Source: Gemmatimonadota bacterium (GTDB lineage: Bacteria > Gemmatimonadota > Gemmatimonadetes > Gemmatimonadales > GWC2-71-9). From it: DNA of 64,000 nucleotides. Location: positions 43,001 through 107,000 of the forward strand of contig QHUJ01000115.1 of assembly GCA_003221895.1 (NCBI GenBank). Direction: 5' to 3'. Made by a program: the position numbers and the translations under genes. Shown piece by piece: positions 16,048-44,573 of the stretch. The notes beneath the pieces are model-generated. The model was not told the origin of the DNA. It saw only the letters and a program-made list of their open reading frames with translations, and did no database searches. The first letter of the stretch is position 1, and each line of letters begins with the position of its first letter.

Positions 16048-16065
16048 ATTGCACCTTGGGTCAAT
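16048..16065 (+). promoter_or_regulatory. Motif copy (k): ATTGCACCTTGGGTCAAT
   Basis: In the divergent spacer upstream of the DUF481-like gene. 39 nt from in-frame GTG 16105. Confidence 0.4.
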
Positions 16066-16122
16066 GCCAGAAACAGCATGCGTGGGACGAACGTCGCATA
16101 CCCCGTGAGCAGAGGCACGCGC

Positions 16123-17253
16123 ATGCTTTCGCTCTCATGCGACGCATCTCCGTCCGCTCGCCGCGCTGTGCCTTGTCACCGACGCGTCCGCGTAACGGCT
16201 GGCGAACATCTTGACGGCAATTCCGCCCTGGTCCGAGCACTAATCGTGACCGGTAGCGTCGTGGCGTCCCTCGCCGCGACTCCGCTCTCCGCTCAGAAGG
16301 TGGATACGGTCGTCATTCGCAACGGCGACCGCATCGTCGGCGAAATCAAGGCGCTCGATCGCGGCGCGCTGACCTACAAGACCGATGATGTGGGTATCCT
16401 CACGATCAAGTGGGACAAGATCGACCGCATCGTGAGCCCGCGGTATTTCGAAGTGGAGGACCAGTTGGGCCGGCGCTACTACGGCAACCTGCAACCGTCG
16501 GACGTGGATGGGCGCATGGTCGTCGCCGTCAGCTCGTTCGTCGACACCCTCGACATCGTGCGGGTCATCCGGATCTACCCCATCGGTCGCAGCTTCCTGG
16601 AGCGGGTCGATGGGCACCTCAATCTGGCCGCGAGCTTCCAGCGCGCCAACAGGCTGCGGGATATCAGCGTGGATTTCGAAGCGGAGCATCGCACGCAGGT
16701 GCGGCTGACCAAGCTGCAGTCGAACATCTACTTCCAGGCGCAGGAAGGTGCCGACGCGACGAGCCGCAATTCGATTGCGTTGAGCCAGTTGCGGATGCTC
16801 AAAGACCGGTGGCTGCTGACGGCGGCCGGGCAACTCCAGCAGAACGAGGAGCTCGGCCTCGCGCTGCGCGGCCTGCTCGCGGCCGGTGGGGGCCGATTCC
16901 TGAGTCAGAGCAACCGCTCGGAGGTTCAAGTGCTGAGCGGGCTCGCCTACACCAACGAGCGCTTCTACGGCAGCTCAGCCACGTCGAACCTGGAGCTGCT
17001 GCTTAGCGGCCAGGCGAACTACTATCGGCGCGATGTGCCCAAAACCACGCTGGAATCGACCCTGACCTTCTATCCGAGCATCACCGATTTCGGGCGCGTT
17101 CGCACCGAATTGGACGCGAGCATCTCACACGAGTTCATCAAGGACTTCAACGTCGGTCTCACCGTGTTCGACAACTTCGATAGTCGCCCGCCAGCGGCGA
17201 GTGCGTCGAAAAACGACTTCGGCGTGACCTTCCTGGTCGGGTGGACGTTCTAG
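16123..17253 (+). CDS. DUF481-like outer-membrane protein (YdiY-type)
   Basis: C-terminal half and ending ...DFGVTFLVGWTF resemble DUF481 barrels. Signal-like segment IVTGSVVASLAATPLSAQ. Start is uncertain (ATG 16123, GTG 16105 or GTG 16246); the 5' part of the track ORF from 15754 is rejected. Confidence 0.65.
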   Translation: MLSLSCDASPSARRAVPCHRRVRVTAGEHLDGNSALVRALIVTGSVVASLAATPLSAQKVDTVVIRNGDRIVGEIKALDRGALTYKTDDVGILTIKWDKIDRIVSPRYFEVEDQLGRRYYGNLQPSDVDGRMVVAVSSFVDTLDIVRVIRIYPIGRSFLERVDGHLNLAASFQRANRLRDISVDFEAEHRTQVRLTKLQSNIYFQAQEGADATSRNSIALSQLRMLKDRWLLTAAGQLQQNEELGLALRGLLAAGGGRFLSQSNRSEVQVLSGLAYTNERFYGSSATSNLELLLSGQANYYRRDVPKTTLESTLTFYPSITDFGRVRTELDASISHEFIKDFNVGLTVFDNFDSRPPAASASKNDFGVTFLVGWTF

Positions 17254-17307
17254 GCGCACACGAGCAGGCCGCGGCCGTCCTTGTACCGGGCTTACTGAGC
17301 ACGCGGT

Positions 17308-17580
17308 TCACCTGGTAGTACGGCACGGCGCGGTCCGGCCGCGGTTCGCCCGGAAACGGTTCCGGATCCGGATATTCGGTCCGCTGACGCCCGCGAGGGA
17401 CGGCTCGTCGGGCGAAAACCAGAAGATCGGCGCCATATAGGACACGAAGCGCGGCACCGTCATGCGCGTGTCCGTGCCCCACCAGACGACCCCGGGCAGC
17501 TTGCTGAAATCGCAGCGGTGCGCGTGGGCGGCCACCGGCAAGAACAGCAGCGTCAAGACAACGGTCCTACCAGGTGCCAT
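17308..17580 (-). CDS. Small hypothetical secreted protein or gene remnant
   Basis: ATG 17580 gives MAPGRTVVLTLLFLPVAAHA... with high third-position GC. The Arg-rich tail and an alternative open frame (EYPDPEPFPGEPRPDRAVPYYQVNRVL) suggest a possible frameshift. No SD. Confidence 0.25.
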   Translation of the reverse strand: MAPGRTVVLTLLFLPVAAHAHRCDFSKLPGVVWWGTDTRMTVPRFVSYMAPIFWFSPDEPSLAGVSGPNIRIRNRFRANRGRTAPCRTTR

Positions 17581-17635
17581 AGGCACCCAGGAGGACCGAG
17601 AGGGAGTAGGCGACCGGCGAGAGCAGCTCAAGTCT

Positions 17636-42145: not shown

Positions 42146-42793
42146 GTGCTCCGTATCTCACGCATTGCAGCCGCATTCGCCGTGGTGGTCATGCTGGCCG
42201 CGGGCGCTGCGGGTACCCTACCCGCGCAGAAAAAAGTCTCGCTCTTCGCCATCGGCGGCTACTACATCGCGAGCGACTTGTGGGCGGGGGTGGGAGCTAA
42301 CACCAACAATAAGGTGGTACTGGACGACTCCCCGACGTTTGGCGGGCGCCTGGTATTCATGTCGCAACCGCGGTTTGGCGTCGAGCTCAATTACATGCGC
42401 GCCGTTTCCAATCTCCATACCACAAACCCGGCGAAGCCCCTGGAGGGGAATGTCAGTCTTGACCAGATCGACATCAGCGGTCTCTACGCGGGGTACAACG
42501 GCACTGGCCGCGGCTACCTGAGCCTCGGCCTGGGCACCACGGCCTTCACACCTCACATCCAGGGTGTGAACGGATCATCGCAGTGGCGTTTTGCGTGGAA
42601 TGTCGGCGTCGGTTTCATGGCCGATGTGGGAAAGTCAATGATCGCGCGAGTCGACGGTCGCTACCGCGGGACCACGACGAATCGCCAGACCGGGTCCAGC
42701 TCGTACTGCGATGCGTTCGGCAACTGCTACGGCTACGCCTCGATGGTGTACTCGAGCGGTGAGGTAACGGCGGGACTCGGCTTTCGTTTCTGA
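42146..42793 (+). CDS. Outer-membrane beta-barrel protein (OmpA-like 8-strand barrel type)
   Basis: GTG 42146 (AAGGA upstream) gives (M)LRISRIAAAFAVVVMLAAGAAGTLPAQ; C-terminal ...VTAGLGFRF. Confidence 0.65.
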   Translation: MLRISRIAAAFAVVVMLAAGAAGTLPAQKKVSLFAIGGYYIASDLWAGVGANTNNKVVLDDSPTFGGRLVFMSQPRFGVELNYMRAVSNLHTTNPAKPLEGNVSLDQIDISGLYAGYNGTGRGYLSLGLGTTAFTPHIQGVNGSSQWRFAWNVGVGFMADVGKSMIARVDGRYRGTTTNRQTGSSSYCDAFGNCYGYASMVYSSGEVTAGLGFRF

Positions 42794-42951
42794 GGTTCGG
42801 CCGTGCGGTACCGCCCGCTCTTGCTCCTCCCCGTCGTCGCGTGTTCTGGTGAGCCGAGCGGGCCTATGCGCGCACCTTCTGTCTCGCGCACATCGAAATC
42901 GGAGACCACGGCGTCTCGGTCCGCCTGCCGGGTCACCGCTATATTGGTCGG

Positions 42952-44226
42952 GTGACCAACCGTACTCGTAGACAAACAGTCGTAGTCGACGTCGGCGGCG
43001 TGATGGTGGGCGGCACCCACCCGATCGTCGTGCAATCGATGACCAACACCGATACCGCGGACACCGCGGCGACGGCGGCGCAGGTGCGCGCGCTGCACGC
43101 GGCCGGCAGCGAGCTGGTCCGGGTGACGGTCAATACCGATGACGCAGCGCGCGCTGTCCCGGCCATCGTGGCCGAGGTCGACGTTCCGATCATTGGCGAC
43201 TTCCACTATAACGGCCATCTGCTGTTGACGAAGCATCCCGCGTGTGCCCGCGCCCTCTCGAAGTATCGCATCAACCCCGGCAACGTCGGCACCAAGCGCC
43301 GCGACGACAACTTCCGCACCATCATCCAGGTGGCGATCGACGAGGGGAAGCCGGTTCGCATCGGCGTGAACTGGGGCAGCCTCGATCAGCAGCTGCTTAC
43401 CGGGATGATGGACGCGAACGCTGCGCTCGCTGAGCCGCGTGATGCGCGCGACGTCACGATGGACGCCATGGTCGAGAGCGCCACGCGATCGGCCGAGCTG
43501 GCGGAGCAGGCGGGATTGCCACACGATCGCATCATCCTGTCCGCCAAGGTTTCCGGCGTGCAGGATCTCGTCGCGGTGTACCGCATGCTCGCCGAGCGCG
43601 CCGATTATCCTCTGCACCTCGGGCTCACCGAGGCCGGGATGGGGACGAAGGGCGTCATCGCGAGCACCGCGGGACTGTCGATTCTGCTGCAGGAGGGGAT
43701 CGGCGATACGATTCGCGTGTCGCTCACGCCCCGGCCCGGCGGCGATCGGACCGAGGAGGTTGAGGTCGCGCAGCAAGTGTTGCAGTCGCTCGGGCTGCGG
43801 AGCTTCACGCCGCAGGTGACCGCGTGCCCCGGCTGTGGCCGCACCACGTCGACGTTCTTCCAACAAATGGCGGAGGAGATTCAGAGCTACCTGCGCGAGC
43901 GGCGCGCCGGTTGGCAGGCGCGTTTTCCCGGATCAGAAGAGCTGCGCGTCGCCGTCATGGGCTGTGTCGTGAATGGGCCCGGTGAATCGAAGCACGCCGA
44001 CATCGGGATCTCGTTGCCGGGGACGGCGGAAGAACCGAAGGCGCCGGTCTATGTCGACGGCGCGCTCAAAACCACCCTCAAAGGGGACAGCATCGTCGCC
44101 GACTTCCTGCGTATTCTCGAAGATTACGTCGAGACGCGGTTTGGATCAGCGAATCGGACTACCGAGCGGCACGTCGCGGTCGGGATGCACGAGGCAGATG
44201 TCCCCGTCCCCAAGAATCACGCCTAG
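42952..44226 (+). CDS. ispG: 4-hydroxy-3-methylbut-2-en-1-yl diphosphate synthase
   Basis: [33 protein letters not shown]-terminus; Cys ligands in TACPGCGRT and [12 protein letters not shown] start 6 nt after TATATT. Confidence 0.95.
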
Positions 44227-44484
44227 CGTGAGCACTTCCGAGAAAAAATTGGCGATCTGACGTGGCGGAAAGTTGACCACCGCGAGGACCAGCCTGCCGA
44301 CGAGATCCTTCGGATCGTAGTACTTGGTGATCTGCGCGCTCGAGTGTTTCAGGCCGAGCTCAGGACCGAAGTCGATCTTCAGCCTGTAGGCGGGCTTTCT
44401 CGCCTGGGGGAACTCGTCGGCTGACACCACCCGGCCCACCCGGATATCAATCCTTGCAAAATCGTTGTAGCTGATCTGGTCCAT
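44146..44484 (-). CDS. csaA: tRNA-binding domain protein (CsaA/YgjH-like)
   Basis: [32 protein letters not shown]...[26 protein letters not shown], typical of CsaA. ATG 44484 chosen. Confidence 0.85.
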
Positions 44485-44555
44485 AACCCGCCCGGGATGT
44501 CTCCTTTTGAGGTCAAGCCGACGGCGCGCACGTGCGTGAGAAGGTTGGCACGTGC

Positions 44556-44573
44556 ATTGCCCTTCCGCCACCG
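44556..44573 (+). promoter_or_regulatory. Motif copy (r): ATTGCCCTTCCGCCACCG (left half conserved)
   Basis: 33 nt (44574-44606) from ATG 44607. Confidence 0.3.

Follow-up and report, generated by a model that had tools for sequence, protein, structure and literature searches.

Activation from a palindromic box that replaces the –35 hexamer is known from the LuxR/TraR regulators, whose lux boxes are 18- to 20-bp palindromes centred near –42.5 and act by class II activation. Among the phosphorylation-dependent regulators, StyR-P acts as an activator when bound about 40 bp ahead of the transcription start of its promoter (PMC2442086), FixJ recognizes 16- to 18-bp imperfect palindromes which overlap the –35 region of fixK and reach –31 (PMC4999443), and DevR reads a palindrome with the half-site G4G5G6A7C8T9 (PMC3177182). 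The DNA considered here, a stretch of 64,000 nucleotides (the window) from a Gemmatimonadota bacterium (GenBank assembly GCA_003221895.1, contig QHUJ01000115.1, positions 43,001 to 107,000 of the forward strand), carries an 18-bp palindrome that recurs in intergenic regions around the gene of a two-component response regulator of the FixJ/StyR type. The best explanation, held with a probability of about 0.78, is that the palindrome is the operator of this regulator (34429–35160) and serves the class II activation of a cluster of about ten promoters.

The window derives from a soil metagenome and belongs to the Gemmatimonadales as judged from the relatives of its IspG; several other assemblies contain nearly the same stretch. 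It has a GC content of 65% and is tightly packed, the intergenic share being 6.6% by a codon-based gene model. A first-pass annotation, made by reading the letters alone, had described a recurrent 18-bp quasi-palindrome, and the element is real: the loose pattern ATTGNNC-N7-CAAY gives 10 strand matches at seven places, as compared to a mean of 0.54 in shuffled sequences (0 of 100 shuffles reached 10), and a matrix trained on the six best copies of that annotation (the reader-seeded matrix, with a cut-off of at least 13 bits) gives 11 matches, all within 16.0–44.7 kb and all except one in the small intergenic fraction. The six full copies originally listed could be retrieved, together with the reverse-strand copy at 36886. 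In the form proper to this lineage, ATTGnnCC-WW-GGnnCAAT, there are about 11 intergenic copies between 16.0 and 42.0 kb of the window, five of which end 33–34 nt upstream of a start codon. A matrix built from metagenome contig sites only (the external matrix) recovers the copies at 16048, 18701, 19966, 24092, 36886 and 42026 at 15–20 bits, six out of six intergenic, and at the threshold that recovers them only one match occurs in 1.27 Mb of control DNA. When box and –10 hexamer are combined in one model trained outside the window, the window yields nine matches, confined to its 16–37 kb stretch, and 1.30 Mb of controls yield four.

Scoring copy by copy modifies the original list to some extent. 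Among the half-conserved copies, those at 34410, 33899, 36758 and 39908 are supported and the one at 18266 is a weak candidate, only suggestive of a box, but those at 42101 and 44556 find no support as boxes. The latter is a sigma-54 promoter (TGGCAC-gtgca-TTGC, 44546–44560, with the –24 GG and the –12 GC), located upstream of a 221-aa gene starting at 44607 and conserved in L007, the nearest relative genome (IspG 90% identity, about 80% nucleotide identity, syntenic with the window over 39.7–49 kb). Matrix scoring does not sustain the degenerate copies proposed at 31651 and 52669, and the copy at 42943 passes neither of the two matrices (5.7 and –1.5 bits), its resemblance being fortuitous; it overlaps the ispG GTG start at 42952, with the GcpE domain starting at residue 10 of that open reading frame (ORF). 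Conversely, an additional copy at 27850 had been overlooked. As for the spacing to the start codon, the distances of 34 nt for the starts at 18666, 24057, 19931 and 39873, and of 33 nt for that at 20017, hold, but the 33 nt reported for 44607 is coincidental, the promoter there being of the sigma-54 type.

The strongest evidence on the identity of the binding protein is that the box tracks the regulator across genomes. Eighty metagenome contigs (445 kb, GC 41–73%) were picked solely for encoding relatives of the regulator (50–74% identity), and 80 ispG loci (1.27 Mb, of which 440 kb from Gemmatimonadales) served as a control. With the external matrix, boxes of at least 12 bits number 137 in the regulator loci and four in the control loci, a co-occurrence of about 100-fold; counted by locus, the box is present in 37 of the 41 regulator loci of at least 4 kb and in 1 of 74 controls. 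The reader-seeded matrix gives 121 matches in the same 445 kb, and the external matrix itself is a perfect palindrome (consensus ATTGGACCWWGGTCCAAT, symmetric counts). With this matrix of the family, 22 of 67 loci have a box just past the end of the regulator gene, as at 34410 in the window, and the closest relatives L095–L098, as well as L007, keep boxes at places equivalent to those of the window. Of the candidate explanations offered by the first-pass annotation, the operator of a dimeric helix-turn-helix (HTH) regulator is thus the one that gains support, the regulator being a FixJ-like protein encoded within the cluster. The accompanying argument, that a site this frequent is unlikely to belong to a narrow regulon, was mistaken, as the boxes cluster around their regulator; similarly, the regulator had been proposed as a global one and, on the available DNA, looks local and cluster-centred.

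Some related loci are without the box: it is missing near three alphaproteobacterial plasmid paralogues (Rhizobium, Microvirga and Sinorhizobium; 47–53% identity), two of which have a PAS kinase annotated as partner, and from four family loci with an HRG(H/C/R) recognition helix, all four of which are short. On the Rhizobium lusitanum plasmid (L175, 1108–1125) a palindrome, TATACCAAGGTATA, lies near the FixJ-family paralogue, with the ACC-AA-GGT centre of the box and different outer bases, which hints that this centre may be common to the subfamily.

The second main line of evidence is the position of the box with respect to the –10 hexamer. Of the 236 directions read outward from the family boxes, 69 have a TAnnnT beginning at offset 23 and 13 have one at offset 24, every other offset accounting for three cases at most; the gap between box and hexamer is 22 nt and the family –10 consensus is TAGAGT. 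If the –10 is placed at –12 to –7, the box extends from –52 to –35, with its centre at –43.5. No TTGACA-like –35 signal occurs 3' of the family boxes, where the bases read A-G-(G/C)-C, and the –35 hexamer is absent at 79 of 128 family sites. Furthermore, the promoter-proximal half of the family box is the better conserved one and the central dinucleotide is oriented (AA 64, TT 14, TA 4 in gene orientation), so that the early remark on an A-rich centre facing the gene is valid for the wider family. The motif had also been described as a misfit to the classical –35/–10 geometry, which is correct insofar as the –35 hexamer is missing, but overlooks the rigidly spaced –10 hexamer. A fixed –10 distance, a centre near –43.5, within the –41 to –44 expected of such sites, and no –35 hexamer are together the geometry of a class II activator, with the transcription start predicted from the –10.

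This geometry also bears on the short distance between box and coding sequence. Across the family, the histogram of box-to-start-codon distances is noisy, with clusters at 26, 32–36 and 44–50 nt, while the –10 offset gave a clean signal. A start codon lying 34 nt past the box coincides with the predicted +1, which implies leaderless mRNAs; this is the case for five starts in the window (offset 35 after the box), and for 26 of the 77 targets in the family the leader is predicted to measure –2 to +3 nt. The boxes would then end 33–34 nt from an ATG or GTG because transcription starts at the start codon itself.

In the proposed mechanism, the GAF kinase (35157–36701) would phosphorylate the regulator and the phosphorylated dimer would bind the box, which would replace the missing –35 hexamer and recruit RNA polymerase to the TAnnnT fixed 22 nt downstream. 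In this genome, transcription would begin at the start codon itself for about half of the target promoters, giving rise to leaderless mRNAs. The regulon would be a 26-kb cluster with about ten promoters, serving outer-membrane proteins, lipoproteins, an M48 peptidase, glutaminase, a cupredoxin and a receiver-only regulator, and the genes of the system itself are probably box-driven too. Promoter by promoter, the predicted targets are a cupredoxin-like protein, two unknown proteins with a PP2C phosphatase, the M48 peptidase, the glutaminase operon, DUF202 together with an outer-membrane barrel operon, the receiver-only regulator, a DUF4136 lipoprotein and an Omp85-like protein. The data show that box and regulator occur together, that the distance to the –10 hexamer is fixed and that changes in the two arms do not compensate each other; direct binding, activation rather than repression, the transcription starts and the signal sensed are inferred.

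Several points weigh against this explanation. The +1 positions are extrapolated from the –10 hexamer, and several of the –10 candidates in the window are poor (GAGGTA, ATATCG, GACACT). The window boxes depart from the family consensus at positions 5–6 and 13–14. The target of the box at 16048 is ambiguous, none being clear, and for the box at 42026, the best copy of the window, neither side offers a –10 at the spacing typical of the family; this box is also missing from L007 through a 26-nt indel. The reading covers about 79 kb of this genome, and a genome-wide regulon is possible. Finally, co-occurrence does not formally split the regulator from any factor that travels with it.

This last point leads to the alternative that survives best, improbable as it is, according to which the same regulator binds the box mainly as a repressor or at an auxiliary site, or a different factor encoded near the same clusters binds it. 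In its favour, the box at 42026 and the kinase-facing side of the box at 36758 lack a –10 at activating distance (family spacing), and StyR also has extra sites serving repression (PMC2442086). However, a repressor site hardly explains the rigid spacing of 22 nt to the –10 and the lack of a –35 hexamer at 79 of 128 family sites, and, as regards a different factor, the conserved neighbours found across the family loci are the kinase and the regulator, which are the only proteins checked and found travelling with the boxes, the DNA-binding domain being in the regulator only.

Much less credible is the proposal of the first-pass annotation that the motif is a core-promoter or UP-like element, read by the RNA polymerase or the housekeeping sigma factor of the lineage. 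The fixed place of the box, just upstream of the would-be –35 at many promoters within 26 kb, is what such an element would show, but the motif is absent from every other promoter region of the window: there are no boxes at 1–16 kb or 45–64 kb, and no intergenic copy lies outside 16–42 kb, leaving the other 35 kb or so empty. With the reader-seeded matrix, the adjoining 15 kb of the contig give zero matches of at least 13 bits, and 440 kb of other Gemmatimonadales DNA give no match of at least 17 bits and only four weak ones. Moreover, the box is found in contigs of 41–73% GC and yet only beside one regulator family.

Least credible of all is a transcribed RNA hairpin, whether a 5'-end stabilizer, an attenuator or an element of the repetitive extragenic palindrome (REP) type: a stem of up to 7 bp with a 4-nt loop can form, and the 26-nt presence/absence at 42026 with respect to L007 resembles an insertion, but arm pairs deviating on one arm only outnumber the compensated ones by 238 to 13, both arms tend to one fixed consensus, the scan of the window for Rfam families gave no match, and the box lies upstream of the predicted +1 and would hence be untranscribed, so that the conserved stem-loop suggested at first has to be abandoned, the uncompensated mismatches between the arms indicating that the motif is not an RNA hairpin. 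Two other site types were considered and rejected. A sigma-54 reading of the whole motif fails, as only 44556 fits TGGCAC-N5-TTGC and the palindromes do not. In FNR and CRP boxes the TTG...CAA cores are 8 nt apart; they are 10 nt apart here, and a site of the CRP/FNR type is made unnecessary by the link to the regulator.

Returning to the operator of the FixJ/StyR-type regulator, the proteins of the system are informative in their own right. The closest solved structures of the regulator are StyR (1yio, E 2e-52) and FixJ (5xso, E 6e-43), DevR (3c3w) reaching only E 1e-11. Neither protein passes the NCBIfam equivalog cut-offs of the Fix system, the regulator scoring 196 bits against 255 for FixJ and the kinase 168 against 850 for FixL, the latter with a GAF sensor and no PAS-haem. 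A histidine kinase is encoded directly upstream of the regulator in 31 of 31 testable family loci, and a scan of 32 sequences, that of the window included, detects GAF in 28. The HTH of the regulator is near-invariant in the family (EKTVKVHRARVMEKM); the lineage of the window and L095–L098 carry ERTIKVHRARIMKKM instead, and their boxes are relaxed at positions 5–6 and 13–14, where the window boxes differ from the family. The second kinase (39934–42027) may, by analogy with DosS and DosT feeding DosR, be a second input to the same regulator; its true start probably lies downstream of 42027, the frame being closed at the equivalent place in L007.

A Pfam census of the 77 genes downstream of family boxes gives 15 receiver-only regulators, nine MlaC, five transglycosylase-associated proteins, three OmpA, two each of GroES, DksA and GAF kinases (autoregulation), and one each of SOD, BON and M48, a predicted target set with an envelope and stress flavour. 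The coordinates of the boxes and genes of the window are collected in Table 1.

Table 1. Boxes and two-component genes of the window. Offsets are counted from the end of the box; –10 hexamers are candidates and +1 positions and targets are predicted.
Feature	Positions	Strand	Context	Scores, –10 candidates and conservation
Box ATTGCACCTTGGGTCAAT	16048–16065		Long intergenic region flanked by a Gly-zipper lipoprotein gene (minus) and a DUF481 outer-membrane gene (plus)	23.6 bits (reader-seeded matrix), 19.4 bits (external matrix); minus direction, AAGCGT at offset 23, only a 45-codon ORF begins at the predicted +1
Weak candidate box AATTCCCCAAGGTCTCAT (gene orientation)	18266–18283	–	5' of DUF4136 lipoprotein gene 17636–18229; GTG start 36 nt past the box	Oriented score 8.6 bits; CAGGTT at offset 24
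Box GTTGCCCCAAAGGCCAAT	18701–18718	–	ATG 18666 of cupredoxin-like protein gene (Pfam) 34 nt downstream	GAGGTA, poor
Box common to divergent genes	19966–19983		GTG 19931 (351 aa, minus) 34 nt off; ATG 20017 (710 aa, plus, followed by the PP2C gene) 33 nt off	TAGGCT 19938–19943 (minus), CATTCT 20005–20010 (plus)
Box GTTGTACCAAAGACCAAT	24092–24109	–	ATG 24057 of M48 peptidase gene 34 nt downstream	M48 peptidase also a box target in one family locus
Box CGTACCCCAAGGTTCAAT	27850–27867	–	GTG 27812, start of glutaminase operon (Pfam), 37 nt downstream	TAGACT at offset 22; combined external model score 19.3
Box ACTGCCCTAAAGTCCCAT	33899–33916	–	ATG 33861 of DUF202 gene 37 nt downstream, then outer-membrane beta-barrel operon	GAACAT 33871–33876
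Receiver-only response regulator	33921–34328	–	Conserved first target of the box (predicted)	
Box GTTGACCTAAAGTCACAT	34410–34427	–	Begins 2 nt past the regulator stop codon; putative promoter for receiver-only regulator gene 33921–34328	TACTCT 34382–34387; same arrangement in L095–L097
Response regulator, receiver and GerE/LuxR-type HTH, FixJ/StyR subfamily (Pfam Response_reg, GerE)	34429–35160	–	Proposed box-binding protein	
Histidine kinase with GAF, HisKA, HATPase; FixL-like kinase core	35157–36701	–	Proposed cognate of the regulator	
Box GTTTCCCTTTAGGTCAAT	36758–36775		Between kinase gene and DUF4136 gene	18.6 bits (reader-seeded matrix); CACAGT at offset 23, plus side; counterparts in L097, L098
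Box GTTGGCCAAAGGTCTAAT	36886–36903	+	ATG 36959 of DUF4136 lipoprotein gene 55 nt downstream; predicted leader about 21 nt	19.7 bits (external matrix); GATGAT 36926–36931; conserved in L097, L098
Box GTTACCCTTAGGTGCGAT	39908–39925	–	GTG 39873 of Omp85-like gene 34 nt downstream	GACACT 39880–39885; kept in L007 with one substitution, surrounding intergenic DNA diverged
Second kinase, MASE1, PAS, HisKA, HATPase, FixL-like core (697-aa call)	39934–42027	–		
Box ATTGACCTTTAGGACAAT	42026–42043		Between MASE1-PAS histidine kinase gene (minus) and outer-membrane beta-barrel gene (plus)	26.3 bits, top-scoring copy (reader-seeded matrix)

Some further observations concern sequences that resemble the box or lie close to one. 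The 26-nt presence/absence with respect to L007 (around position 2270 of the latter) covers 42018–42043, that is, the box at 42026 plus eight flanking bases, and may reflect an operator gained or lost, or else a small insertion. Further on, 42059–42125 is a non-coding block 5' of the outer-membrane barrel gene (GTG 42146), near-identical in L007 despite diverged flanks, which contains GGAAC and, 16 nt on, GGGTCC, possibly a promoter of the ECF-sigma type. At 29790–29807 a perfect promoter-proximal half-box, GGTCCAAT, is joined to a degenerate distal half; it ends 35 nt before GTG 29754 (DUF3943 gene), lacks a good –10 at the distance usual in the family, and may belong to the regulon as a weak or decayed site. 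Two similar strings, CCTTGGTCCGAGG at about 13200–13212 and CCCTGGTCCGAG at 16222–16233, are found 10–13 nt before the GTG starts 13224 and 16246; they hold a GGTCC half-core, and their position fits the ribosome-binding region, not the geometry of the box. Another palindrome, ATTGTCC-tttcaata-GGACA (about 61438–61458), has a longer spacer than the box and sits between the gene of an AsnC/Lrp-type regulator (60874–61353, minus) and an NAD-synthase/LarE-like gene (61473); it is probably the operator of the AsnC/Lrp-type regulator itself and not a copy of this motif.

Elsewhere in the window, the gene of an NtrC-type sigma-54 activator starts at 63488, and six tandem paralogues of MacB/FtsX-type permeases beside an ABC ATPase, a membrane-fusion protein and an outer-membrane factor are found at 289–6034, as well as in L087 (7533–14993). 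A tRNA scan of the window returned no match.

Gene regulation in Gemmatimonadota and similar uncultured soil bacteria is almost unstudied, and no paper was found on Gemmatimonadota promoters or transcription starts. Here, the sequence alone yields the outline of a putative regulon, with its regulator, operator, fixed promoter architecture and target list, and it leads to predictions of transcription starts to the nucleotide and of leaderless transcription for about one third of the family targets. As the same box stands beside related regulators at GC contents from 41 to 73%, the system may be widespread in soil microbiomes as a switch for stress or envelope functions. A more far-reaching interpretation is offered tentatively and is on balance doubtful, namely that the loci represent an undescribed cross-lineage two-component system, composed of a tandem-GAF kinase with a FixL core, a FixJ-like regulator with the HTH EKTVKVHRARVMEKM and often a receiver-only partner, which would control an envelope and stress regulon (MlaC, transglycosylase-associated proteins, OmpA, BON, SOD, GroES, M48) through promoters with the box, 22 nt and TAnnnT but without a –35, many of them leaderless, and would function as a DosRS-analogous switch for dormancy or general stress in Gemmatimonadota and other uncultured soil lineages. 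The case also carries a caution, in that a motif that seems too frequent for a narrow regulon can reflect the clustering of the regulon genes around their regulator.

How the locus relates to the described systems can now be stated. The StyS/StyR system of styrene catabolism in Pseudomonas, like TodS/TodT, is close to the present one in that StyR is the closest solved relative of the regulator. The STY box, ATAAACCATGGTTTAT, would have the central ACC-WW-GGT in common with the present box. In both cases the site is an inverted repeat, and that of StyR is bound by the phosphorylated dimer about 40 bp upstream of the transcription start, with activation as a result (PMC2442086). The two differ in the outer bases of the box, TTGG here and ATAA there, and in the sensor, a GAF kinase here and a PAS double kinase there; in addition, the present system would have envelope and stress targets, many promoters, a rigid –10 spacing and leaderless targets, whereas StyR serves a catabolic operon. 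FixL/FixJ resembles it in that FixJ and FixL are the best NCBIfam matches of the regulator and of the kinase core, respectively, and in the similar palindromic type of the sites, but the box is unrelated in sequence to TAAGTAATTTCCCTTA, a PAS-haem sensor is missing and neither fixK nor nif is among the targets; with both scores below the cut-offs, the regulator was rejected as a FixJ orthologue. Like the mycobacterial DosS/DosT-DosR (DevR) system, the locus has a GAF-sensor kinase, possibly a second kinase, and a NarL/LuxR-type HTH regulator near which many boxes are clustered; in both systems the box is palindromic and contains a GGAC core. Counted from the dyad, the GGAC of the DevR half-site (PMC3177182) occupies the place that it has in ATTGGACCW. 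By contrast, the present box measures 18 bp and not 20, single boxes are usual in place of obligatory tandem Dev boxes, and the gene content differs; as nothing but the GGAC core and its phasing is common to the box and the 20-bp Dev box TTSGGGACTWWAGTCCCSAA, and the structural match to DevR is far weaker than that to StyR (E 1e-11 vs 2e-52), the locus is not a DosR/DevR regulon. The LuxR/TraR regulators are ligand-activated, not phosphorylation-activated, and their N-terminal domain is unrelated to that of the present regulator. The full consensus of the box was not found in the open-access literature, where motifs are mostly shown as logos, which makes this weak evidence of novelty. Altogether, the particular family, box and regulon appear to be undescribed in the searchable literature, and the mechanism by which they would operate is of a familiar kind.

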